The notes under the pieces were generated by a model. The model made no database searches and had not been told where the DNA came from. It worked only from the letters and a program-made list of their open reading frames with translations. A stretch of DNA of 45,431 nt, counting the filler, from Catajapyx aquilonaris (taxonomy: Eukaryota), in NCBI GenBank assembly GCA_000934665.2. It is 2 parts of 2 records of this genome, joined end to end, with 100 filler letters (N's around TTAATTAATTAA, not from the genome) between each part and the next. Parts side by side here need not be neighbours in the genome. Positions count along the whole stretch, not along the records: positions 22,830 to 45,431 come from JYFJ02005840.1; 1 more part is not named here. One strand, written 5' to 3'. Each line of letters opens with the position of its first letter. Position 1 is the stretch's first letter. Made by a program: the position numbers and the translations under genes. Shown here in pieces: positions 12,578 through 45,431 of this stretch.

Positions 12578-12849
12578 AAGAGTATGTGTGGGTGTGTATG
12601 TTAGGAGCTTGTACTACCAGCCAATCAGTCGACCAAAATGGTATAGAATTGCCAGCTAGTGGTGGCCCCACCTGTATTGGCCCCTGATCCCAGCGCTTCT
12701 GTGGTAAACCCCCCTTGATGGGGAGATCAACTAAGCTCACACAAAAAGGGGGGGAGTGGCTGCCACCTGACTACAACTGTATACTTTTTTTCAACATAGT
12801 TTCAAGGCAAAACGGAGGCAGAATGCAGGCAGGCATTGTTGTGCAAGAA

Positions 12850-13375
12850 ATATACAGTAGCCCAATACTCAACATGCTGCGATGTGTGTTCCATGCAGAG
12901 GTTTATTGTGAGACATTACAGAAGCCCAAAAGGGCCATGTTGAGTTCTGCAGTGTTTTTCATGCATGACAATGCCAGCCTGCATACTTCTGTGCATACTG
13001 GAACCCTGCTGCAACAATTCCAGTGCGAATTATTGGATCACCCACCTTACAGCCTGCATTTAGCCCCTAGCGATTACCACCTGTTCACACCTGTGCACAT
13101 AAAGAAGTGGCTTGCAAAACATGCTTTAACAATGACGAGGAGTCGCAGTCCAGTACAGCATACAGGGGTGGATGAAATCACAAGTGGTAGACTCCTGTGG
13201 CAGAGGCATACAAGCTCTTGTGAAACGTTATCACAAATGCCTCAATTTGGCTGGAAACTAACTTGAAAAAAGTAGACATGTAGCTTTCCGTTGTACAGGT
13301 GAATAATAAAAATTCTTTGCTTGCATTGTTGTTTTTCTAAGAAAAAATGTCAGGTACTTTCCAGATTATCCTCAT
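12850..13375 (+). pseudogene. Mariner transposase remnant (catalytic C-terminal half)
   Basis: YCETL...FMHDNASLHT...LDHPPYSLHLAPSDYHLF (HDNA and YSPDLAPxD motifs), frameshifted afterwards. Confidence 0.9.
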
Positions 13376-14230: not shown

Positions 14231-14684
14231 CCCGCTGGCGAGGCTAATTTTACACAAATCACATAATTAGCAATTTGCAGGTTTCACTTCTCTGGGGGGG
14301 GGGGGGGGGNTGCAAATTTTTCAATTAGATTGCTTTTATTAAATGTTACTTTAAAATTAAATGATCATTTCCAAACTATCGAGTAGCAAGGTCATCTTTG
14401 TTGGCAGGTTTTTTTTTACACAAACATAATAAAATTCACAATGAGTTCCCCTCAATTCCACAAGTGATCCAAACTAGACCTTACAATTATTGCCACCTGC
14501 TACATAAATCCCACATGTGGCCTTTTTCTTCCCTAATCCTGAATTTGCTTCCTTCTGGCTAGTGTCCACACTCCCACTTTTGAGATCCCGACCACCACCA
14601 CCCCAGCACTGGCAAGCCTCTACACACAAGCATTGGCAGGTAACGAGGTGTCTCAAAGGGTTAAAAATCCTCCAGTTGAAGGCA

Positions 14685-15670: not shown

Positions 15671-16399
15671 ACTCGTACGGGTAATTTGCCCAGAACTGTC
15701 ACCTTTTGCAATGACTTTTGCCCCAGCACACTAAAAACAAAAGTAACAAAGTTGGATTATAATGCAGTGGCAACTAATCCTACACTTCCTGACAATATAC
15801 GACACCTACACGACTTTGTTAGGGAATTAAACACAGATAAATCTCGTGGTGAAATATTTTGGGGTTGGGCGATCTACACTGAGGTTGGGCAAGTTTACCT
15901 GTCAGAAGTCTGAGCACACTCCCCCAAATACTGGGATTTTATATTTCTGTTCGTGTCAATGGTACCAAAGTGCTAGAAATGTACAATACCAATTGGGCCA
16001 CCAGATCGACACAAACCACACGCATGTAGAGGCAACTGTAGACCTGAGCACATCATTCTCCAGTGTGCAGTAAAAGGCAGTTTTTGATAACTTCTACAAT
16101 GATGGTGTCAACCAATCATAAGCTGAACATAGAAACAAGGGCACATGCATGTGGGCTATGAGAAATGAAGCTGTCATTAAGAGCCATAGCAAAGAAACTG
16201 AAGATTTCTTTTGGGGCCATGCATCAAACCCTGTTTAGGAAAGCAGAAACTGGGAAAAACATCACAAAACCATGGAGTAGAAAGTCGACATCATAGATAA
16301 TAAAGGTAGCTACCTTTAATATCTATGGTCGATATCAAGGGACACTGTAGGGGAACTCAATGCAAGAAGGGCAAACTCAGCGTCTTAACGAACTGGGAC

Positions 16400-16710
16400 A
16401 AGAGGCCTGCATGATGCCGGTCTCATCAGTAAGGTAGCAGCCAGGAAGCCATTGTTGAGGAAGGCCAACTTCGCAAAGAGACTAAAGTGGGCCCAGGAAC
16501 ACAAGAACTGGACTGGGGATCAGTGGGGACAGGTGCTGTGGCCAGATGAATCCAAGTTTGAACACTTTGGCTCAAAGCAGAATCAGTTTGTCCATCGCCA
16601 TCCTGATGAACACTTCCTGACTGTGTGGTACCCACAACTATGCATGGGGAGGCAGATGATGGCTTGGAGATGCTTTGATGGAAAGGGAGTGGGTGATATT
16701 GTGAGGGTTA
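16400..16710 (+). pseudogene. Tc1 transposase remnant (first catalytic D region)
   Basis: ARKPLLRKANFAKRLKWAQEHKNWTGDQWGQVLWPDESKF. Confidence 0.9.
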
Positions 16711-16711
16711 C

Positions 16712-17433
16712 TGTTTGTTTGTTTGTTTATAACTTTATTTGAATCGGTCATTTTGAAAAGGGGTCATATCCTCTGGAAATGCGCTGGAGATGACCCCTTT
16801 TCCAAATGACTGATTCATTTACATTTCGTCGTCCTGCCGCACATACTGCTTGGCCGACCCTCCTGCTTCCATACACATTTACATCTTTGTCCCTCTAGTC
16901 TTCTACAACACTCTTGCCCCATCCAAAATAATATTTTCACTCACCCCCTCTCCCTGTCTCTCCAAAACTGCAACATCTTTCTTTTTTCCACCATACCGTA
17001 CAGATACGTACACATAGCTCCCCTATTTTTACATTCTTTACAAATCCACACACTTCTTCATCCTCCATCCCTTCCACTGCTGTTATCCATTTCCTCCTCT
17101 CTTCCCTCATTACCCTGCAATCCCTCACAATGTGCCCCATATTCTCCTCCCCCTCCCCACACAATAAGCAGTTCCTATCCGCTTCTGACAGCCACGACCA
17201 GCTAGCCCTGCAATGTCCCACATCTGAGTTTAGCCAACACCTTCAAAAATTTTATATTTCCTCTGTCTGTATTGGTCTTCTTCTCTCTCTATCTTTACAA
17301 ATCTGTAGTCTGGCCAGTTTAGTCGTATTGTCAATTCTCTCCTCCCTCTCTTTGATCATCCTCTCCCTCAGTTCCTTCCCCCATGAGTCCCATCGTTCTT
17401 CCCAAGTTTGCCTTTGCCATCCCTCGTCACATT
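16712..17433 (-). mobile_element. 5'-truncated LINE 3' end inserted in the Tc1 remnant
   Basis: CLLCGEGEENMGHIVRDC (CCHC zinc knuckle of ORF2 C-terminus), 3' stem-loop 16740-16818, (AAAC)n tail. Confidence 0.8.
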
Positions 17434-21280: not shown

Positions 21281-22420
21281 CATCACGACATTTCCCTATA
21301 AAGGGTAGTCAGCGATGACGGGAGCCACAAGCTAACCCAAAATATGAACTAAATTAAAACTTGCAAAAATCAGCCTATAAACCACCCATCCGGCCCCCCC
21401 ACCCCTGTCCATCTCAGACGACAAACTCTCAATATTAAATTTTAAATTTAAATATATTACATGACTATGCAACACAGTACTTGAGAAATCCCCCCCCCNC
21501 CCCCCCCCCCCCCTGGAAGAGGAATCAGCAACTGTTATATTCCTCCAAGTGACTAGAATATTCTCCTCCAAACGACCAGAACACCCACAGGCCAGCGAGA
21601 AGAACCAGCATACAGAAATCCACATCCGAACTCCAAGCGCTGTGCAGGACAGAGAGAGAGGCAGACACCCTTGCAAGCATGACTACCGGTGTCAACCTAT
21701 GCATTACTGTGCAAGAGATATTTGCCAAACTTGTAGTTCTGCACAGCACCCAGAGCCAGAGTATGAACTTCCAGACGCCTACTCCTCCCACGAACCTACA
21801 AACATTCTAGCCATTCGGAAAAATTCAATGGACACTGCCATTTCTCACAAACCTGTGAATATTCTACCCATTAATTAACCTACGCCATTTACACCTATCC
21901 AAACAAACAACCCTTAGCCTCAGCCACATCCATGGTCCTATTGACACATGAACGTCGAGGCTTAACACTAGCAACACCCTTAAGACACTGACCCACCTGG
22001 TCCAACCATGTCTTCCTAGGCCTCCCCTTGCCCCTCTTACCAACTACTCCACCCAAATACACCTTCTTCACAATCTCCTCCTCCTTCATCCTCTCCACAT
22101 GACCAAACCACCTTAGAGTAGACCTACACACCTTATCTTTAACAGTCTCCTTAACATTGCACCTCTCCAAAATCTCCTCATTCCTAATCCTATCGAACTT
22201 GGTAACCCCACAAACAGCCCGGAGATAACGCATCTCTGTAGCCAACACCCCCACTCTTATGCCTATCTGACCAAACCCACGCTTCACTACCATACGTAAG
22301 TGAAGGAACAATAACGTGAGAATAGACAGACAACCTACAGGCAGAAGATAAGTCCTTATTTCTAAAAAACTTACTTGTGGCACCTATCACTTTCAACCCA
22401 GAACTAACTCTCCTAATACT
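21281..22420 (-). mobile_element. 5'-truncated RTE-clade LINE (RT C-terminus plus 3' UTR)
   Basis: IVPSLTYGSEAW...EMRYLRAVCGVTKFDRIRNEEI...LRWFGHVERM...GKRGKGRPRKTW; the 3' end recurs at 31198-31280. Confidence 0.9.
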
Positions 22421-22729: not shown

Positions 22730-24007
22730 NNNNNNNNNNNNNNNNNNNNNNNNNNNNNNNNNNNNNNNNNNNNTTAATTAATTAANNNNNNNNNNNNNNN
22801 NNNNNNNNNNNNNNNNNNNNNNNNNNNNNGGAATTGGGTGTAAATGATGATATTTGATGACTGATGTTTTAGGACGTTTAGGTGGTACGGGTATGATCAT
22901 GTCGAAGTTATGAATATTTGAGAAAAGGCGGCGACATTTTATGCCATCGGAAAATTTGGTTGACCTTGAAGGAAGGCATGTGGTTTGTTCAGTGCAGACA
23001 GATGAAATCAACTTGCGCTGGAAATGACTGCAAAATGTTAGCTTGGGGTAGCCGCCTTTAAAAAGCAACTTTTACGCAACTCAGCCTCTACATTAGGTGT
23101 CAATAGTACTCACATTATTACAATTTTGAATCTGAAGGATGATCTTGTGAAGGGATCTGGTAAAGGCATAATTTTCAGTTTGCATTTCTTGAGTACAAAA
23201 TGTAGCAAAAAGTTTCAGATATGTCATGTAGGATTAGGTTGTATTGCGGGGTATCTATGCGGAGAAAAGGTGACAAATGAACTGACTGTCGTAGCAGAGC
23301 ATTTAAAAATTCATGTCCACTGCCCTTGACTTTAGTGATTTTAGGCCACATTGGCAGAAGGCAATGTTTTATTTTATGTGCGGCTGTTGTATGTTTGATC
23401 AAGGGCAAAAAGATGGAAGTTGATCCATATGTCCGTACTAATGCTCATTCCCTAGAAAACTATTCGGGTTAAAATTGTGGAGATTGCCTACTATTTGATT
23501 ACTAAGCCATGTAGAGAGGTGTGAGATGTGCAGAAATTGCAAAGGGTTATTGCAAGCTATATAGCATTTGTTGACTACCATGGGGTTAGTTTTCAGTTGA
23601 TTTGTTCTTTTCCCATTCTGAGCCTGGTGATTAATCAGTTTTTCTTAAAAAATCTATTCGTGATTCTAGTTCAGTGGCTGAGGTTTGCCCTGTAATATCT
23701 ACTGATTTTCAATTATGGTGGCGTTGGGTGAAGGTACCTTAGGTTAATTAAGTTAATATGTACAGTTTACATTAATATTAATAGTTATGTAAGAGTTGTG
23801 TAACATTCAGTGTAATTGTAGCTGTAATACTTAGTTGTAGTACCAAGTAGTAGCAGTAAGGTTGATAAGGTCAACTGACGCCACCAAAATTTTGAAATCA
23901 ATTGTTTGGGCTGCAAACCTTAGCTGCCTTGTGTAAAATTTTGAATCACTAATGACTGCCAATAAAGCCAGACGCCAAATTTTTGTAGCTCTTCCATATG
24001 TAGATTA

Positions 24008-25397: not shown

Positions 25398-26456
25398 TGT
25401 AGAATATGTATATTGCGTACATGAATGTCAACAAACTTGGGAAATTGATCGCTATTCAAAGGCAAATTATTGCGTATTAACATAGTTTTGCTGTGTCTTT
25501 GCTGTTGAGAGCAGGAATTTTTCCACGTAAATGACAGCTGCTTAGCCCCAATTAATTAAATGCATTTCAGTGGCAATGTCACTTGCACTTGAGAATTGTT
25601 AATTACTGTATTATTGGTGTACATGTGTTGGAAAAACTTGGTTTTTGATTTTCATTTTTAGGACTTGTAATTATTTTTTTACTTTTTTACTATCATTTCT
25701 TTATTGCAATTATTTTTGGTCTTTTTTATTTTTATGTACAATTTTTTTTCGTTGAATATATTTGAAAAATATCAATGGTGGGCTTCCCACATGTAGTCGA
25801 ACACACTTGATCATGTGTGTAGTGCCTTAGCCTATTGTAGTAGACATAGTGCCCACAATTTTTGCAGATCATTATAATTAGTTTTTATTTTTTTTATTTT
25901 TACAAACTGTAGTACTAGTGTCTTTATTTTTATTTTTAAGATATTTAGTGCGATGAAACTGCATTTTCAAATTTATTTCCACTGGTTTTTGTAAATATTA
26001 CTTGCATAGTAAATTTTTTTAAAACTTTGGTTACAAACAAATAATGGACTTTAAATTTTGAGGACCTACTCTGGATCAAAAATGTTCATAGTACTTTGTT
26101 GCACATAGTTGTAGAGAACAGATCTGAACAGCATTGCATTATTTTCATTCTTGCTAAAGTCGGGCACCAACAAGTTGACTGGATCAATAATAATTCATTA
26201 TTTATTGAAAACCATTTGCTAGTACGAGGACTGACAAGTGAGTGCTTGGTCAACAACTTCAATTTTTTTTTCTGAAAGTTTTTGTCGCATTATTATTGGA
26301 CCTCATTATTGATTTTAATTACGAGGTGCCTTGTCCCACATGGTTGCACCTAGGTGTGCTTCACTCTCATCCATCATTTTCCTTGGACCTTATCAATTGC
26401 GTTCCATGATATAGCAACTGTTACTCTTATGATATAAAGGAAATGTCTCATTATTG

Positions 26457-26835
26457 AGTTCCCCTCCCTCTCCCTTCCCCAGATGGTATCTCCCCCTTTG
26501 CTTCTCCCATGACCTCGAGAGCTATGCCGGCGGTAGCTTAGTCTACTGGCAGGGTTTCCCAAGCCGGACAGGTCTTTGGGGTAGGAGAAATGCAAAAGGA
26601 GATGCCAGTCCTTCCTCTCTTCTTTTCCCTCTTAGTTTCTGTGTACATGTGCTGTTTCACTTACATTTTGCGAAGGTTTTGATTCCTTAGCCTGCCCGTA
26701 GCTTCAATGATGTAATGAAAAGCTGTCTGAATTTTTTCGTGTTGAAAGCTGCAACACACTGATTTCTTCTCATGCATTCTTCGTGCATTCTCAATCCATT
26801 GATCAATTGTTTCCTTTTTGCAGAGGACATGTCCA
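26457..26835. repeat. ~375-bp direct repeat copy 1 (RTE 5'UTR-like piece plus an unknown coding fragment)
   Basis: Near-identical to 28420-28792. Confidence 0.95.
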
Positions 26836-27049
26836 TGAAACAATTATTGTTTCAGCCCTCAGGCATTTGTCATTGTCTGGGCCGATCCTGCTTTTGAGGC
26901 ATTTCACCTGGCTCAAGGGACATAACCTTTGTATCAAGGTTCCTGATGTTTTTTTGCTATACATTCGGTGAGTCATATTGAACCAACTGATTTCCAGGCC
27001 TTTGATTCCTGATGAATCTATTGAGTTTGCATCTACATCTGCCTTGTTA

Positions 27050-28145
27050 CTCACCATAATGACTGTCTGATAAATTAACTCAAACATCTTTCCATCGACT
27101 TTAGCCATGTTTAGGTAGACATAATTCTGCTGATCTAGATTGCCAAATGGATCCTCGTATTTAAGTCGTTTCTTGTCAAAGCATCCAGTCTCACTTACTG
27201 GGACTTTGAAAGATGACAACTTTCATGGTGATAAAAGATATCACTTTTCCCTCCGTAGATGTCCACAGGTTCTGCTGAATGACTTTGTCGTTAACATTGC
27301 ACAGAAGTTGAGCACTGGTCATATTGACACGAAACATAGAGTCGTGTGTAGGGCATATCACATTTGCAACTGTCTTCTTGGAAAGACTTGCGTGACAAGT
27401 TAGTACATCGTCTAACTTATGGTTACATTTGTCTTTATTCCAGTTGGGGTCTGGGATCTTCTCCCATGTAAGTACCCCGTGATCCGCTGTGTAACAATAA
27501 ATCTGATTGTAGAGGTAGTGACCAGACAGTGGAATCAGCGTTTTTATACTCAGATCCCAATGGTCCATACTAACTGTTAAGTTAGACACCTTGATAATTC
27601 TGGATACTGTCGTGGATGTTCCTGTCCAGCCATGTTGTGCATGAATAATTTCTCCAATCTGGTTCCCAACATAACCATTTTCCCTCTTTTCCTCCAGTTC
27701 TCTGATATACTTTCTACAGTCCACTGCATCTACAGTGACTGGCTTGGTCTTAATGGTTTCTGTCTGAGCTCCGAAGAACCAGTAGGTATACTTGGAAGTG
27801 TACTCCACACCATGACAATAAGTCACGTTGATGTTCCATGCAGATGTATCGAGGGACCATAATCCGACTTGCACTTGACATGTGTTAAGCGTGGATGTCC
27901 ATTGGTCTTGGTAACCTCCAATCAGCTTCATCCAGGGCTGCTGCAAAATCGGGCTTATTGAGCCTATTTTTCCACTGCAGTTGGATAATGGGTGAATGTA
28001 CGGATTTTCAGTGTTTTTTGTGCATCTGTAGTGCTTGTGCATCAACTAGGATTGGAGATTTTTCTAATGAGAGGTATCCGTCAGTGAAGGTCACAATTGT
28101 TAGCCCGATCAACAGAGTCTGCATGACAATGTATAGAAAAAACAT
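27050..28145 (-). pseudogene. Endogenous viral element: mononegavirus (rhabdovirus-like) class III glycoprotein G, frameshifted and lacking a TM anchor
   Basis: Signal peptide MFFLYIVMQTLLIGLTIVTFTDG from ATG 28145; YCHGVEYTSKYTYWFFGAQTETIKTKPVTVDAVDC parallels vesiculovirus MCHASKWVTTCDFRWYGPKYITHSIRSFTPSVEQC (fusion loop 1); GWTGT (loop 2); CYTADHGVLTW. Confidence 0.8.
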
Positions 28146-28228
28146 GATTTATATTGAGCTGATACTCTTCGGAAGACACTTTATAATTGATATTAAGGTG
28201 GTTGGCCCAGCATTGCCTTTCAACCTCC

Positions 28229-28399
28229 AAGGATAGGGAAGGAAGGAAGCGGCTGTGGCCTATTATACGGAAGCGACCCCGGAATTATCCTAGAAAGACC
28301 GTGGAAAACCACGGTCAGGGTTGCCGGCCCCGGGATTCGAACCCAGGACCTCCCGATTAGCAGTCGGACGCCCTATCCACAATGCCAACCTGCTTCGGT
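28229..28399 (-). mobile_element. tRNA-derived SINE, same family as 25140-25397
   Basis: A box TGGCATTGTGG, B box GGTTCGAATCC, GGCCACAGCCGCTTCCTTCC 3' motif. Confidence 0.85.
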
Positions 28400-28419
28400 G
28401 ATCAGCATGGAACTGATTA

Positions 28420-28792
28420 AGTTCCCCTCCCTCTCCCTTCCCCCGGATGGTATCTCCCCCTTTGCTTCTCCCATGACCTCGAGAGCTATGCCGGCGGTAG
28501 CTTAGTCTACTGGCAGGGTTTCCCAAGCCGGACAGGTCTTTGGGGTAGGAGAAATGCAAAAGGAGATGCCAGTCCTTCCTCTCTTCTTTTCCCTCTTAGT
28601 TTCTGTGTACATGTGCTGTTTCACTTACATTTTGCGATGGTTTTGATTCCTTAGCCTGCTTCAATGATGTAATGAAAAGCTGTCTGAATTTTTGCGTGTT
28701 GAAAGCTGCAACACACTGATTTCTTCTCATGCATTCTTCGTGCATTCTCAATCCATTGATCGATGGCTTCGTTTTTACAGAGGACATGTCCA
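28420..28792. repeat. ~375-bp direct repeat copy 2
   Basis: Near-identical to 26457-26835. Confidence 0.95.
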
Positions 28793-31542: not shown

Positions 31543-31863
31543 TTACTTTTTACGGTACATGAGGGCTTCGTAAAACTGTGTCTTCATCAGCCATGGCCCT
31601 GGTCCTTTCTGTCCATAGCTGGTGCATCCTCCCAGTTCCAGATGTATGCCCGCGTTTCTGACCCTCCGAGAGGTCCAGCGTTGGACCCTCCCCCACAGGA
31701 TCAGATGGACATCCACGGTGGTGTCGGTGCTTGCCTCTTTTGCCGTTATGATTACCTCATCTTGGTCGACGTGGACTTCCAGGTTGCTCGGACTGGCGCA
31801 GAAAATCTCTACGACCATGATCCGACCGTACTGTCTCCAACCGATGATACGAGTGCTGCCCAT
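31543..31863 (-). CDS. p23/CS (HSP20-like) domain-like ORF, copy 1
   Basis: GWRQYGRIMVVEIFC...LEVHVDQDEVII...VHLILWGRV...GIHLEL fits the CS-domain W.Q....V...+...V strand pattern; paralogous to 33928 and 38124. Confidence 0.5.
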   Translation of the reverse strand: MGSTRIIGWRQYGRIMVVEIFCASPSNLEVHVDQDEVIITAKEASTDTTVDVHLILWGRVQRWTSRRVRNAGIHLELGGCTSYGQKGPGPWLMKTQFYEALMYRKK

Positions 31864-31994
31864 CTTGGGGTTGTTGATTCTCCTCTGTTGTTCCTTTTAT
31901 GCAGTTCCTTTTGCTGAGGTGTGCCTCCGTGTTCAGTATAATGCATACCGTACCAAAAGTTAAGTTATCTGCACTGCTGTAAGATCAACATTAT

Positions 31995-33927: not shown

Positions 33928-34317
33928 CTAATCAGGGATATGACTCCTTACTAGACCATGGGGTGGTCTACCCCGAGGCGCGTCCTCCTCTTCTTCCTGT
34001 TCCACCAAGAGCCTGGCGAACCATAGCTCATAAATACGGCCCTGAAATAACGCCAACCTGGACACTCCCCTTCTCTCTGTCTTCTCCCAACGTGTGGATG
34101 GTGCCAGTACCCACTTCGGATCTTCTCCGAAAACGTTGATCAGTTGTCTCCAAGGCCTTACGGTTCCCGTCTCCAGCTCAAGGTGTAGACCCCTGTGACT
34201 GGTCATCAGCCTCGTCCACTCCCGGATGGGTCCCCAGGACTGGTGGTTTATCCTCATGCATTCCACAAATTTTGCTTTATTTATCTTCGAGACTTGATCT
34301 GTCCCACCTTTACGCAC
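33928..34317 (-). CDS. p23/CS domain-like ORF, copy 2
   Basis: WGPIREWTRLMTSHRGLHLELETGTVRPWRQLINVFGEDPKWVLAPSTRWE parallels p23 ..WPRLTKE...NWL.VDF..W. Confidence 0.55.
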   Translation of the reverse strand: MRKGGTDQVSKINKAKFVECMRINHQSWGPIREWTRLMTSHRGLHLELETGTVRPWRQLINVFGEDPKWVLAPSTRWEKTERRGVSRLALFQGRIYELWFARLLVEQEEEEDAPRGRPPHGLVRSHIPD

Positions 34318-34599
34318 GCCCTTTGTATAGAAATATTCCCATGATAGCTTCCCCTACACACTACTATAGTGTATAGGATCGTCATATTTATGGACCGCCC
34401 ATATAAGGCCAGCGTTAGTGTCCCATCGTTTAACTGTCAATTTCTGGGACTTGTGTCTGGTGGAGCTCCCCATTTCTTCCTTTCACTACTCCTTCCCACT
34501 CGCTGCAAACATTTTGCATGTGCGCTGATACTCTTCTCTGGCCCAAGCTCTATAAGTAGGTACCCATGTTTGCCAATCATTTTTTAACCATGTGGCAAT

Positions 34600-35600
34600 A
34601 TCGTGGCGAACGTACTGTTCGCAACCACGACACCGCTATAGATACATCCTCTCCCAATCATCGTCATGGTTCGAGTTGTGTTCTCCATCTTGACCTCGTC
34701 CTTCAGTCACTGGAGCCGGATCTGCAGGGGTCCAGAGCCAGAGAAGGCACCATGGGACGAGTCTTGTTGTTCTTCAACATCTCTACAGGGGCAGCCCCCC
34801 CGGGTCAAAAATGTCCCTTGCATCAAGGGAATAGGTGATCAAGAATGAGTACCATTTTTTTCCTCGTACAGCCACCCGGTAGTTTGCAATGTTCTGGTCC
34901 ATTCTGTCTACACATCCCACGTTTTGATTGTACATTATTTTGAACCAGTCAGCTGAGTCGGGGATAATATATGTTATGCTGAATCAGGGTGGTAATCTAT
35001 ATTGCTGACTCAGGGATTGCAACATATCCGCTCCCTATGTGGAAAGTTGTGTGTCCGGTCTGACAACCGACACTGAAATGAGAGTTGCATTGGGTATCTT
35101 ACATTGAAGACCCAATGGTCATAATCATTGACGGGAGCAAAGTTGGGTTGCGGATTAACTACTATGGTTTTTATACACTTCACTCCCTCGATATGCGCTA
35201 TTGTTGTGATCACTGAGGGCTGCAATTTATTCCTGAACGTGCACGATTTCTTGATTTTTCTGCGTCAAGCCTACTCTTAGTTTGTGATTCAACCGCCTGA
35301 TATCACTTTCTGTGCTAACTCCAAAGATCCCTTTGATAACTTTTCCGCCAAAGTATATCAGTCCTCTTTTCTGCCTAGATGCGTCTCTTACTTCTGTTAA
35401 ACGTTCGAGTGTTTTACTTTTACGGTTAGTGTCGTCTAAGTATTTTATCTCGGCTTGTATGCCGCGTATAGCTCTGATGATGTCTTCCCAATCAGCCTGC
35501 CACACATCCTCTTGCTCCGGATCTCTGATGAATTCTTGAGGGCCACGAAGAGTTCTCCTAGGTCCAGTTCACCATCGGTACAGGAGGAAGACAATACCGT
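34600..35600 (-). pseudogene. Baculovirus F / errantivirus Env-like gene remnant with furin site and fusion peptide
   Basis: RQKR|GLIYFGGKVIKGIFGVSTESDI (RxKR-GLI..GG...K.LFG..D..D motif, ~35376 downwards); HWVFNV...LSFQC downstream; internal deletions. Confidence 0.85.
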
Positions 35601-38123: not shown

Positions 38124-38400
38124 TTAACACCCAGTCAGGCTCCTCCCCAGGGTGCTCACCAGACTCGGCCAACGTTGGTCGCTCTCGGTCTGGAACTCCA
38201 GATGTAGGCCGTCCCTATTCGTCATCAGGCTGATCCACATCCTTACACTTCCCCAGAATTTAAACCGGATGTCTACTGTTGCTTTGGTTCCCTGCTCTCT
38301 AACTTTGATGGTTAAAGTTGAGCCTTCCAGTTGGATGTCTGGGCTGAAACAGAAGACTTCCAGCACCAGGTCCTCTCGCCGCCAGTGACTACGTTTGATT
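38124..38400 (-). CDS. p23/CS domain-like ORF, copy 3
   Basis: HWRREDLVLEVFCFSPDIQLEGSTLTIKV...VDIRFKFWGSVRMWISLMTNRDGLHLEFQTESDQRWPSLV. Confidence 0.55.
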
Positions 38401-39089
38401 GGTCCAAAGTGACCGCCTATCTAGTGAAACAACATGTATGTTTTATTCTCCTTGTAGTATACATGCGCACCGTATATTGAAAGCTTTATTTACAGAAGAA
38501 ACGAGAAAAATTAAGAGCGAGAGAAACTTAACGTTTTCATATTACTTTATCTAAACAATGTAACAACTTAACTCACTTAACCAAAACAAAACACCACAAA
38601 ATAATGTTACATGAGAAATACCAATAGTCTACCTTCATCTCAAACAACAACACGTTGAGGCAGCCTCGCCCTAGACAATACAGTCTGGATCTCACCCGTC
38701 CGATTACGACATTGGAAGTGACTGAATTCGACGGCCCCCCCAGCGTCTCCAGCCTCTTCCATTGAGAGTGGTCCTTCCTGCAGTCCTATCGTGGTCTCAG
38801 GCTTCGCTATTTCCGCTTCAGATTTTTTCGGCTCTTCTTCCCTTAGTGTTGGTTGCTGGCCTTCTGGTGTCTCCCACATTCTTGGCTTGTTGTCCGTGGT
38901 AGATCCTCCTCCTGTCTCCAGCTTCCTCCACGTTGGGTATAATTCTTTCCTTAACAGCGGTTGACGTCCTTTTTCGTTTTGTCAGTGGCATTCTCCTATC
39001 TCAACGGCTTCAGACATCTGGAAGGTGGTTTCTTCTCACCTCCAGTTCGGTCTTCAGATATTATTCTTTCTAGACGGATCGTGGCTGAT

Positions 39090-41672: not shown

Positions 41673-43063
41673 ACCCAATATGACCATTACTGTTGAGAAA
41701 ACGTTTACAACCCAGCCGAAAGTCTTGACAATGAATTAGTCTTCTTGTTGTCACCGGTCAGCGGCGCCATATATTCTGGGTCGAGTTGGACCTTCCCAGC
41801 CTTTGCTCTGTTCAGCTGGGCTTCCTTCCTTGGCTCTTCTCCTTGGCTGGATAATGTAGCTTCGGGTTAATTTATGGTGTGTCCCCACTTCCACTGCTTG
41901 AGGTCGCCTTCCTCTACCAGGCTGCCTCGTCCCTTCTGACGGTGGGCGTCTCAGCCCGATCTTCACAATATTCTGTTACACTTGACCTGGGATTGGCTCC
42001 AATGGTTTCTCAAAGAAGGACGATGGATCAGTAACAAAAGTTTATCAACAAAAAATAAAGCAATTACATACCCATGATGTTCACTGTTCACTCACTCCGA
42101 CGGACCAAAATAAAAAGATGCTGCTCTGGGGCGGTCACCCCCTTTTATACCCTCGGGTTGCGTACCAGGAAGTTAGGCACGTACGGCCAACGTCTCTGTT
42201 TTGGTGACAATGTCCTCACTGCCCACGTCACTGCTGACCATACATTTTATTATCTTAATAGTCAGGCAGCCTCCAGGTAAACATCCCCGAGTTCAAACCA
42301 TATCGAGGATTCCCTGCTGTATTGTCGTAACTCACTTGGGCAAAATTTTCCAGGGGAAACGATTGAATTATTACTCGGCATCAATATAATATATTGTGGC
42401 GTGAATGTATTCCTCTGCAACATCATAATATTATGTGCCCTTGGCAGTAAGTATGACAATGTATGTCAATTAGAAGCTGCAGAATTGGACACCATTTTTG
42501 TGGAGTTACGACATTTGGACTGCTACATGGTTTCCATATGGTGCATGCTATATTGTCGTATGTGCAAATGATGAGAGGAGAGCAAGTAAAAGTCATAGAC
42601 AAGACAGTAGTTGTAACCAGATGATGAATTCTTGGTTCGGTTGAAGTTAAGGTTTTGACTGCAGTATAATGTGTCTGCCTCGGAGTTGAACTTTTACTCT
42701 CACATGAATGTCATTATTCATTCACTCATTAAGGCATTATTTTTTCATTTACTAGAAGATTACTCATCATACTGATTGTACAACATACTGCACGTATCTG
42801 TCCATTTATATATTTCTTTTTTAAATTTCCGTTACCACACACTTACAAAACCATTTGAATAATAAATTATTGTTCTGAATAAGCTTGACATGATCTTTTA
42901 CCACTATAACCAAAGAACAGCCACAGCTAAAATATAAATACAAAACATTATTTCTCACAATAAAATTATTCAGCCAGTACTGTCATCAACTATGCGTATT
43001 TAACCCAAGATAGTTGACGTTAAAGTTTTCCATACCCAAACCTCCAGAAAAGATAAACACAAA

Positions 43064-43444
43064 TGTTCACAGTGTATAAACGGTTTATTATACGGATGCT
43101 ACACAGAGTCACAGGCAAGGGTTGCCTGTATAACACAATTATAAAAGGACAAGAATTTGGGGCTACTTACACAAGTGGGAGCTTCCTGTAGAGTCGTCCT
43201 GGAGAGAGAGACCAAGAGAGGCGGAGGACGCTTTATATAGGGCTCGTTTGCCCTTCAGAACAAGGAAATCCACGCGTGCAACCTTAGTTACGTAAAAGTT
43301 AAGATGGACGGTACATCCGATGTACCTGTAAATTTTAGTTGTAAAAAGGTGACCTCGGTCCGTCCTTGAACAATACTAGAAGAGTACTAACGCACGCGTG
43401 TGCAAATGGTACGTACAGAAACAAACATGGCGCCCTCCGTGACA
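43064..43444 (-). mobile_element. 3' LTR of an LTR retrotransposon, preceded by a polypurine tract
   Basis: Minus strand TGTCAC...GTGAACA; TATATAAA (43232-43239), AATAAA (43084-43089); GGAGAGGGAGG a few nt upstream (43450-43460); no TSD, so not a clean solo LTR. Confidence 0.65.
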
Positions 43445-43604
43445 AATCACCTCCCTCTCCGGAAGAAATTATGGCCAGCGCCATAATTTCTCCTTTTGCA
43501 CTCATGGAATTTTTTTAAAAAAATGACAGAGATTGACCATTTCAAAAAAATAAAGAAAAAAGAAAAAATGAATAATACAAAACATGACCGTGCGAGCAAT
43601 TTCA

Positions 43605-44201
43605 CTACGGCTGCTTCTTGGGATTCTGGACCTTCCACACCCTCCGCTGACCTGGCAGCCGTCTGGTCCCATAGGGATGCTCGTTATGGTCCCGGAATTG
43701 CTGCTGTTTTTGGGCCGACACAGGACCGGGACTCCGGGCTCGGGGGCTGGATCCGGGAAGAGCGGGCTCCGCAACCCGTGTGAGAACGACGGGGAGCACC
43801 CCTGTCGCTACCTCCTCCAAAGCTCCCAAGTCGGACAGGAAGCGGTCGTCGATGTCCTCCTCTAGACTGGAGCAACTGCTAACTGGTGACCACCCGGGTT
43901 GCGTGGTCCCCTCGGCCGGACCCTGGGTTATCACGGCGTCCACACCGCTGGCTGCCGTAAGGTCTGCGTGGCTGCCGGCGGGCGGTTCGGTGGCGTCCTG
44001 GGTGGTGGCTGGCAGTATACCTTGGCGCCAGGGCTGTACCTGGATCCTCGCTTCAGGGGGCAGCCACCTCCAGTCCGCTATCCAGTTGCCGGCTACCCTC
44101 ATCATCAGCATTCCGCCGTTGTACCCGTCAGGGGAGATCAGCACAGACCCATTGGTCACCGCGTGCCCAGCGAGTTGTAATGTGGTCGGGGGATTATACA
44201 T
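43605..44201 (-). CDS. Unknown GC-rich 198-aa ORF between the G fragment and the PPT/LTR (possible retroelement accessory ORF)
   Basis: Open frame in the ORF track; no recognised motif. Confidence 0.3.
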   Translation of the reverse strand: MYNPPTTLQLAGHAVTNGSVLISPDGYNGGMLMMRVAGNWIADWRWLPPEARIQVQPWRQGILPATTQDATEPPAGSHADLTAASGVDAVITQGPAEGTTQPGWSPVSSCSSLEEDIDDRFLSDLGALEEVATGVLPVVLTRVAEPALPGSSPRARSPGPVSAQKQQQFRDHNEHPYGTRRLPGQRRVWKVQNPKKQP

Positions 44202-44347
44202 CTACCACGGCTGGCGGCGGCACAATGTACGTCATCAAGGGCCCCTGCTCAGACGTCCTCACACTCGGCTGGATCCCCTGAGCTACGGTAACTGCTGGTT
44301 GCATCCGGTTGGAGACCGGCCCATGCAGCGGAGGGGCTGCCGCTCGC

Positions 44348-44614
44348 TGGTATGATTCTCTCGGAGTGTTGAGAGGTATAGGCTCCGAAGAAGTATCGGG
44401 TGGAGGTGCAGCTGGTTAACCGGCAACGCACGACATGGGCTGGTATTCCCTGGGACCTCAAGTCCGGTGCAAAAATGTCCAGTCTCAGCGACATGAGAGG
44501 AGTTGATTCACAGGCGATCGGGGGTGGTGACGGAATCAGGACGGGTGTTGAGTGGAAGTTGCACAGGGAGGACACAAGGCGCAGGAGGGACGCCAGGAGC
44601 AAGGGGTGTCTCAT
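44348..44614 (-). pseudogene. Endogenous viral element: 5' part of a mononegavirus class III glycoprotein G
   Basis: Signal peptide MRHPLLLASLLRLVSSLC; HVVRCRLTSCTSTRYFFGAYTSQHSERII fusion-loop-1 pattern; starts just after a viral gene junction. Confidence 0.7.
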
Positions 44615-44638
44615 GGTTGGTTTGCTCTCTTTGAGAGT

Positions 44639-44656
44639 CGCTTAGTTTTTTTGATA
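44639..44656 (-). promoter_or_regulatory. Mononegavirus gene junction (gene end / intergenic / gene start)
   Basis: TATC-AAAAAAA-CT-AAGCG between a stop codon (44671) and the G ATG (44614); VSV consensus is TATG-A7-CT-AACAG. Confidence 0.8.
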
Positions 44657-44670
44657 GGGAAACTCAACAA

Positions 44671-45130
44671 CTACATAAGTTTCTCCGGAGCTCTAGGAGC
44701 GGGCTGGTCTAAAACATGGATCTCTCGAACAAAAACGACTTCTACTTTAAGCCCCATAAAGGCTGCTCGAGGGAGGCCGCTCACTTCCGTTCCACTGAAC
44801 ATCCAATACCCGTTCTGAGGCGGGTTCGGATAGGTCCTGTCGGGAGTCACTGTCATGATCAGATCTCCCAGCCACAGAAACTTGATGTTTGATCCATCGA
44901 AGTGCAGTCCGGATTCGTTGTCCTCCAGGCTCCCGATAGGAAACCGCATGTCATGAGCTACCATTTCTCCGTTGGTGTGGGTCACTTCCACTCGAACAAG
45001 CAGATACACCTTCATGTCATGCAAATGCCTCCAGGGAAGGCTGGTCCGGAGGAAACACTTGAGGGGGTGGACGGTACACTCAATATTAATATCTTCCCAT
45101 TTTCTTTTCAACAACTTCTGATTTGAAATG
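44671..45130 (-). CDS. Putative viral matrix (M)-position ORF upstream of G
   Basis: Uninterrupted ~150-codon frame ending 14 nt before the gene-end signal; assignment by gene order only. Confidence 0.5.
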
Positions 45131-45133
45131 GCA

Positions 45134-45335
45134 TCACAACATGTGTTGGAAATGGCCACCATTATCGGCCAGGCAGGTCTCAACACGGCACGACATATTT
45201 TGGAATCTTCTGGCCAGCATAATTATTATCTTGCGGTACTGCCTGAATTTCCTGGACAGTTGTTGTCCTTCAAGGCCTGGATGGACCGTTGATTGTTGCG
45301 GTACACTCTTCCTTTCAGAAAGCCCCATAAGAAGT
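45134..45335 (-). pseudogene. Tc1/mariner (DUF4817-type) transposase C-terminus
   Basis: FLWGFLKGRVYRNN..SIQALKDN / MLARRFQNMSCRVETCLADNGGHFQHML*. Confidence 0.85.
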
Positions 45336-45431
45336 GTGACGCCAGGTTGGCGATGCACATGGCTGTGGGAGTGACCAGTTGCAATTGGTACACTCCGACC
45401 CAGTTCGGGCTTCCGCTGGCCACAGCCAGTA

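Follow-up and report, generated by a model that had tools for sequence, protein, structure and literature searches.

Near one end of a 45,431-nt stretch of the Catajapyx aquilonaris genome (assembly GCA_000934665.2; the whole stretch, two joined parts with positions 22,830 to 45,431 from JYFJ02005840.1, is called here the window), two open reading frames (ORFs) follow each other on the minus strand, and the short gap between them carries a motif resembling the transcription junction of rhabdoviruses. Is this locus a piece of a negative-strand RNA virus that entered the host genome, and can a junction identify it when its proteins resemble nothing? Our answer is that the locus is probably a truncated fragment of an unknown rhabdovirus-like virus, comprising part of the gene placed before the glycoprotein gene (the M position) and part of the glycoprotein gene (G), copied across the junction between them. 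Of these three components, the M-position ORF, the junction and G, only the junction is intact.

A first-pass annotation of this DNA had listed a series of elements, and all of them were found on the minus strand: a stop codon, a 14-nt spacer (TTGTTGAGTTTCCC), the A7-type signal TATCAAAAAAA, the dinucleotide CT, AAGCG and, after 24 nt, an ATG (Table 1). The architecture it described is also there, with an ORF and its stop, a short 3' untranslated region (UTR), T-A-T-N-A7, CT, an A-rich start, a leader and an ATG of the secreted type. The upstream frame is open over 183 codons from stop to stop (45222..44674), its earliest in-frame ATG being at 45162 and its stop TAG at 44673..44671. The putative 3' UTR measures 25 nt including the signal and the putative leader, from AAGCG to the ATG, 29 nt, the gap from the stop codon to the ATG of the next same-strand ORF being 56 nt. 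The whole lies in a composition island (~43600-45080) with 50-72% GC, in a repeat-rich window of ~42% GC, and the island's observed/expected CpG ratio of 0.73 compares with 0.56 for the flanks. The A7 run of the junction (44652..44646) is the sole minus-strand A7 of this island. Downstream of it the GC content falls to 26% (43500-43599).

We compared the junction with rhabdovirus signals. Its 18-mer is identical at 15 of 18 positions to the junction of vesicular stomatitis virus (VSV) and of SVCV, the carp spring viremia virus, given as TATGAAAAAAA-CT-AACAG in the available portions of two reports (PMC8675757, PMC11326706). For the salmon-louse rhabdoviruses, the available text of their description gives TATG(A)7, a spacer of 0-6 nt, CT included, and starts that read AACAG/AACAA or TAAGAA, with AACAG in LSRV-No9 and TAAGAA in LSRV-No127; the N-P junction of No127 has a CT spacer, the 5' UTRs of the G genes measure 20-28 nt, and AAGAA/G is named by these authors as a common start among related rhabdoviruses (PMC4234470). 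The rhabdovirus-type likeness claimed in the first-pass annotation is partly supported, the start AAGCG standing near the TAAGAA and AAGAA/G starts of these crustacean-associated viruses. The locus shares with the alpharhabdovirus junction the order of the elements (TAT-N tetramer, A7, CT spacer, A-rich start), the placement between a pre-G gene and G, and similar UTR lengths.

The exact 18-mer, searched with up to three mismatches, has one site in the window (0.03 expected), at least one match being present in 3 of 100 shuffles. With the VSV-type consensus 18-mer (TATGAAAAAAACTAACAG) at the same tolerance, this site alone was found in the window, the expectation being 0.09 and at least one match occurring in 8/100 shuffles; taken on its own, this rarity is modest evidence. 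The site falls precisely inside the 56-nt gap between the ORFs, where a junction would be expected. The probability of an A7 in a gap of this length is 0.0008 at the local composition and 0.0075 at that of the window, and the fraction of 56-nt minus-strand windows containing an A7 is 0.026. A full-text literature search with the exact motif spelt in four ways gave among the matches listed only plasmid, primer and poly(A) sequences and no viral junction. On the plus strand, just past the 3' edge of the island, CCATTTCAAAAAAATAAAG (43537-43555) matches the minus-strand junction (44641-44659) at 15 of 19 positions, and the two were reported as inverted-repeat arms 1085 nt apart; this is probably a chance match of A-runs.

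The upstream ORF has coding-like features. A frame of 183 codons was equalled in 1 of 2000 shuffles, and the GC content by codon position (0.60/0.38/0.60) has a coding-type periodicity. Its size of 136-183 codons and its place directly upstream of G fit a small M gene (~140-230 aa), which is positional evidence only; the part downstream of ~45081 (136 codons) falls outside the transposase-like tail described below. Modelled by AF2 as a single sequence with no alignment, the ORF is predicted at low confidence to form mainly beta strands (pLDDT 41.7 over its whole length; 53.8 with 7 strands once trimmed to the 136-codon core). The downstream ORF opens with MRHP followed by a hydrophobic core, LLLASLLRLVSSL (Kyte-Doolittle 13-residue mean 1.98), which makes its N-terminus signal-peptide-like as far as the sequence tells.

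A number of the results in this paragraph, and in those on the 5' side of the upstream ORF and on the G region, weigh against a viral M|G fragment. At the junction, the tetramer is TATC and matches TATG at 3 of 4 positions, the base before the A-run being C and not G; in the available parts of the sources, TATG before A7 is described as conserved (PMC4234470, PMC11326706), with TAAG as one exception (PMC4234470). The start AAGCG agrees with AACAG at 3 of 5 positions, and TAAGCG with TAAGAA at 4 of 6. No second junction of the same motif was found in the window with up to three mismatches, the contig ending at 45431. At the edges of the insert, neither a poly(A) tail on the insert strand nor a target-site duplication or flanking direct repeats around 43600 and 45080 were found, so that the hallmarks of capture mediated by a long interspersed nuclear element (3' poly(A), target-site duplication) are missing from the locus. 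The A-rich tract which adjoins the 3' edge of the island is not the poly(A) tail of the insert, because on the strand that carries the viral-like ORFs it reads T-rich. Another 124 translated pieces of the window, each 75 aa or longer, yielded no N, P or L domain. Self-comparison by blastn and tblastx detected no other copy of 43000-45431 in the rest of the window.

On its 5' side, the upstream ORF runs into a remnant (45431..45134) that we take, by eye from a three-frame translation, for the C-terminus of a Tc1/mariner-type transposase, Pfam giving no significant match there. The first 18-35 codons of the ORF overlap this apparent transposon tail, and if the assignment is right they belong to the transposon and the viral part is truncated at its 5' end. 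No start signal was found nearby before the ORF. Pfam and the sequences of the Protein Data Bank (PDB) gave nothing relevant for it, and a word-index search at near lengths yielded 0 of 70 candidates at E ≤ 0.01. An exhaustive phmmer search over 1.84 billion representative proteins returned no genuine relative. Its sole match, P0001, a 4174-aa bacterial repeat protein (E = 2.6e-6), is spurious, being the sum of 7 weak repeats with a best domain of 10.1 bits. In the ESM Atlas there was no usable match (recognition value 1548). Foldseek searches with the low-confidence models, twice against BFVD and once against PDB, gave none at E ≤ 0.001, and the matches listed, generic beta-barrels and phage proteins, included no matrix protein of any family. 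The ORF has thus no sequence or fold match to a known M or VP40-type protein in Pfam, PDB, phmmer, Atlas or Foldseek searches. Membership of the three-copy minus-strand repeat family of the window (31.5, 33.9 and 38.1 kb) was tested as well, and the ORF is unrelated to it.

Domestication of the upstream ORF by the host, with selection keeping the frame open, appears very improbable to us. The frame has stayed open over 171-183 codons beside a G with at least two disabling lesions; at that lesion density (at least 2 per 1010 nt), however, a 549-nt frame would by our own estimate remain open by chance about 1 time in 3. In addition, no start signal or well-placed ATG lies outside the transposon-like tail, and no homologues or paralogues were found on which selection could be tested.

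The G region is broken by at least one premature stop and at least one frame change between ~44250 and ~44160. It codes for at most ~336 codons in total, about a third short of a rhabdovirus G, a type I membrane protein with a signal peptide at the N-terminus, an anchor at the C-terminus and a length of roughly 500-540 aa; the salmon-louse rhabdovirus G proteins have 532 and 542 aa according to the available text (PMC4234470). Either this G has lost internal sequence or it belongs to an unusually short kind; it is not intact. The signal-peptide-bearing G of the first-pass annotation has its signal-like N-terminus, but the protein is not whole and stops after 121 codons at a TGA (44251..44249). 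The frame of piece 1 (130 codons) is not beyond chance, 112 of 2000 shuffles equalling it, and that of piece 2 is marginal in length (20/2000), with a GC content by codon position of 0.66/0.54/0.71. Piece 2 is rich in P, G, A and S and has no segment of membrane-anchor grade (maximal 19-residue Kyte-Doolittle mean, KD19, 1.32). A third-frame piece reaches a KD19 of 2.43 in the 26% GC, T-run stretch and has no Pfam match; speculatively, a former membrane anchor may survive in it, or it may equally be flanking DNA. The fusion-domain profile Rhabdo_glycop_FD of the rhabdovirus glycoprotein (PF00974 and relatives) gave no match at E ≤ 10 with whole pieces or sub-fragments, although the HMMER filters may hide very weak ones. 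Neither Pfam nor PDB gave a match for piece 2, and nothing relevant was found for the G pieces among PDB sequences. Word-index searching of piece 1 at longer lengths, over a collection of 5.8 billion clusters, yielded 0 of 306 candidates, and the Atlas had no usable match for G (recognition value 1264). Both piece 1 (..RYFFGAYTSQHSER..) and the beginning of piece 2 resemble rhabdovirus G motifs by eye, a likeness that had no statistical support and was not counted. Taken together, no homology of either ORF to a protein of an exogenous RNA virus emerged in all the searches run. The profile searches of both ORFs against mononegavirus M and G, which the first-pass annotation had proposed as a check, gave no significant similarity to those proteins or to anything else.

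The only Pfam match of piece 1 was to BDV_G (PF06208), with E = 0.09 and 11.6 bits for a cutoff of 27, at noise level: ~25 pieces were scanned at loose thresholds and ~3 matches with E < 0.1 arose, as noise predicts. It bears on a variant of the viral reading that takes the source for a mononegavirus outside the rhabdoviruses in the strict sense (bornavirus-, nyamivirus- or arto-like), which we judge quite unlikely. In its favour, residues 15-82 of the protein align colinearly, from the N-terminus on, with profile positions 23-90, the rhabdovirus G model is unmatched, and the structure predicted for the upstream ORF, almost entirely beta strand, would resemble the beta-sandwich matrix proteins of bornaviruses and filoviruses more than the alpha/beta M of rhabdoviruses. 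This is countered by a score far under its cutoff, by the absence of a matrix protein of any family among the Foldseek matches listed, and by a junction much nearer to the alpharhabdovirus type than to the bornavirus signals.

We regard it as decidedly unlikely that the locus is a host sequence, a GC-rich island, exon or pseudogene, with fortuitous open frames and A-run. On this side, the 57-72% GC stretch of G piece 2 holds long ORFs on both strands (198 codons on the minus and 191 on the plus strand), the frame of piece 1 is of chance length, the two Atlas recognition values are in the range common for shuffled sequences, and an exact-sequence look-up of 4 ORF variants found none of them in a 15-billion-protein collection. 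The length and periodicity of the upstream frame speak otherwise, and so do a pair of same-strand ORFs 56 nt apart, the second signal-peptide-like, which would be an atypical gene structure for a eukaryote, and a neighbourhood made of transposon debris rather than genes.

How far the negative searches count can be judged from a second rhabdovirus-G-like fragment of the window, which matches Rhabdo_glycop_FD, lies 16 kb from the junction locus and is independent of it. Used as query, it retrieved 0 of 1731 candidates at E ≤ 0.001, and against PDB it found only designed armadillo repeats and no rhabdovirus G. Since a Pfam-positive fragment retrieves no relatives, single-sequence searches are insensitive for G proteins, and the negative results are therefore weak evidence against a viral origin. 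The presence of an independent fragment of this kind nearby means also that the host genome does endogenise such viruses. Against the viral reading, the second fragment and the G pieces did not align, either in direct comparison or with phmmer --max.

For a truncated M|G fragment of a rhabdovirus-like virus, the sequence of events could be as follows. The GC-rich island would be a non-retroviral endogenous viral element (EVE), the DNA copy of a plus-sense RNA of a mononegavirus with rhabdovirus-type signals, spanning the point where the gene before G meets G. On the U7 that templates TATC-A7, the viral polymerase would have stuttered and so polyadenylated the upstream mRNA, then skipped the dinucleotide and restarted at AAGCG to produce the G mRNA. 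As the A7 is exactly templated and the genes are contiguous, the copied RNA would have crossed the junction, and we infer that the template was a read-through bicistronic transcript or an antigenome, two possibilities which the eroded ends do not discriminate. Start and stop signals are retained in bornavirus-derived EVEs that arose from read-through transcripts, according to the available portion of one study (PMC10288550), so the mechanism is already known. In the host, the transcription signals would be inert and the insert a truncated, decaying fossil which adjoins, or is cut by, a transposon remnant on its 5' side, has no 3' end signal or tail left, and presumably has no present function. 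What the sequence shows is the anatomy, the statistics of the motif, the island in composition and a coding-like periodicity in the upstream ORF; a viral origin, M and G as identities, the kind of template and the lack of a function today are deduced.

The two-gene EVE proposed in the first-pass annotation is an overstatement, as G is broken and about a third short, and the M-position ORF has no recognisable 5' end. Its suggestion of a fairly recent capture had a weak basis, since of the frames only the upstream one is still open, G shows at least one premature stop and one frame change, and poly(A) and target-site duplication are both missing. As would suit a non-retroviral EVE, the locus lies in transposon debris and carries disabling lesions in G.

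Table 1. Features of the junction locus and of the rest of the window, with positions counted along the window
Feature	Position	Strand	Remarks
M-position ORF	45186..44671	-	171 codons from GTG at 45186
Gene-end/polyadenylation-like signal TATCAAAAAAA	44656..44646	-	14 nt 3' of stop codon
Intergenic dinucleotide CT	44645..44644	-	
Gene-start-like AAGCG	44643..44639	-	alternative parse: TAAGCG with one-base spacer C
Rest of putative G-transcript 5' UTR	44638..44615	-	24 nt
G piece 1	44614..44249	-	ATG at 44614, 121 codons, stop TGA 44251..44249
G piece 2	44201..43605	-	198-codon open frame, other reading frame, 57-72% GC
Third-frame piece (speculative)	43683..43450	-	hydrophobic stretch of transmembrane grade, then basic tail
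Transposase-like flank remnant	45431..45134	-	spread over three frames, stop 45136..45134, runs off window edge
A-rich tract	43537..43590	+	adjoins 3' edge of island; T-rich on viral-like ORF strand
Second G-like fragment	26806-28045	-	Pfam Rhabdo_glycop_FD E = 6e-7, ~41% GC, frame-shifted
tRNA-like element	28322-28393	-	Rfam RF00005, 34.1 bits; inside upstream copy of the direct-repeat region around the second G-like fragment
HTH_Tnp_Tc3_2	16389-16739	+	Pfam E = 1.3e-8, decayed Tc1/mariner-type transposase piece
Baculo_F-like envelope fragment (baculovirus-F/errantivirus-type)	35230-35568	-	Pfam E = 0.0012, 17.9 bits, under cutoff 24.1
Three-copy protein-coding repeat family	31546-31896, 33931-34353, 38127-38420	- (all)	pairwise phmmer E 2e-10 to 0.01; no Pfam match

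The remainder of the window contains other foreign coding remnants, among them the Baculo_F-like piece, and these lead to a further explanation, that the ORFs come from some other mobile element or virus (for instance a retroelement carrying env, or a large DNA virus) and that the A7 spacer resembles a rhabdovirus junction by coincidence. We consider this unlikely. Both ORFs are complete orphans, the motif test was post hoc and allowed 3 mismatches, a tolerance at which 8 of 100 shuffled windows have such a site, and the CTAAG of the spacer is near the TAAG core of the late promoters of baculoviruses and nudiviruses. These viruses, however, are AT-rich, unlike the island with its 59% GC, no pol, integrase or gag-like domain was found beside the ORFs, and the match to the rhabdovirus junction is positional too, being on the right strand, in the 56-nt gap and with rhabdovirus-like UTR lengths.

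The second G-like fragment has a signal-peptide-like ATG ahead of it, near 28155, and shows neither a junction motif nor a gene upstream. It is flanked by two 384-nt direct repeats (26453-26835 and 28416-28792) which are 95.6% identical, and this suggests that it was captured inside, or duplicated with, a repeat element. The tRNA-like element, the only Rfam match over the whole window, is probably the head of a tRNA-derived short interspersed nuclear element. Beside the HTH_Tnp_Tc3_2 piece, transposon debris includes decayed pieces at 12688-13263 (plus strand) and 16940-17242 (minus strand); among the decayed transposase pieces there is presumably a mariner-like DDE C-terminus, recognised by eye only. 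A weak zf-RVT match (E = 0.001) was also found in the debris of the window. From ~21000 to 45431, all recognisable transposon and viral coding remnants are on the minus strand, including an ORF like the C-terminus of a reverse transcriptase (21898-22383), both G-like fragments, the envelope piece, the three-copy family and the transposase-like tail. This arrangement recalls a region of the PIWI-interacting RNA (piRNA) cluster type, and a role as piRNA source is conceivable as a speculation. N bases occur at 14310, at 21499 and in two 44-nt runs (22730-22773 and 22786-22829), and were read as assembly gaps.

If the viral reading is true, a viral fossil whose proteins have diverged too far for homology searches can be identified from cis-acting transcription signals, and the locus is an example of the "hidden" EVEs missed by similarity-based screens. 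The two ORFs and the 18-nt junction would then form a probe for the cognate virus in transcriptome data. More tentatively, the locus might be all that is known of a mononegavirus lineage that used stop/restart signals of the alpharhabdovirus style although no relative of its proteins was detected (in 1.84 billion representative proteins for the M-position ORF, and by the longer-length word-index search of 5.8 billion clusters for G piece 1), its coding sequences and exact junction having been preserved through an RNA that spanned the gene boundary. If the viral reading is wrong, the locus is a warning not to rely solely on a junction-like 18-mer when three of its positions mismatch.

Three known systems can be set beside the locus. 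Alpharhabdoviruses have signals at every gene boundary, whereas a single boundary is present here, within the window. The second G-like fragment, a single-gene rhabdovirus-like G EVE, is likewise a frame-broken, glycoprotein-like remnant on the minus strand amid transposon debris; it differs from the junction locus by its Pfam match, its ~41% GC, its direct repeats and the lack of an upstream gene and junction. In the bornavirus-like elements EBLN/X/P, N can be recognised by homology, and an origin from mRNA is backed by poly(A) or by size (PMC10288550); the junction locus, in contrast, is eroded at both ends, carries signals of rhabdovirus type, and neither of its genes can be recognised. If the viral reading holds, it would be an arthropod-type case of capture from RNA of the read-through or antigenomic kind, for which the documented cases have so far been mainly bornavirus elements of vertebrates (PMC10288550). 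What EBLN/X/P and the junction locus would have in common is to be multi-gene non-retroviral EVEs that keep their internal start and stop signals (PMC10288550).

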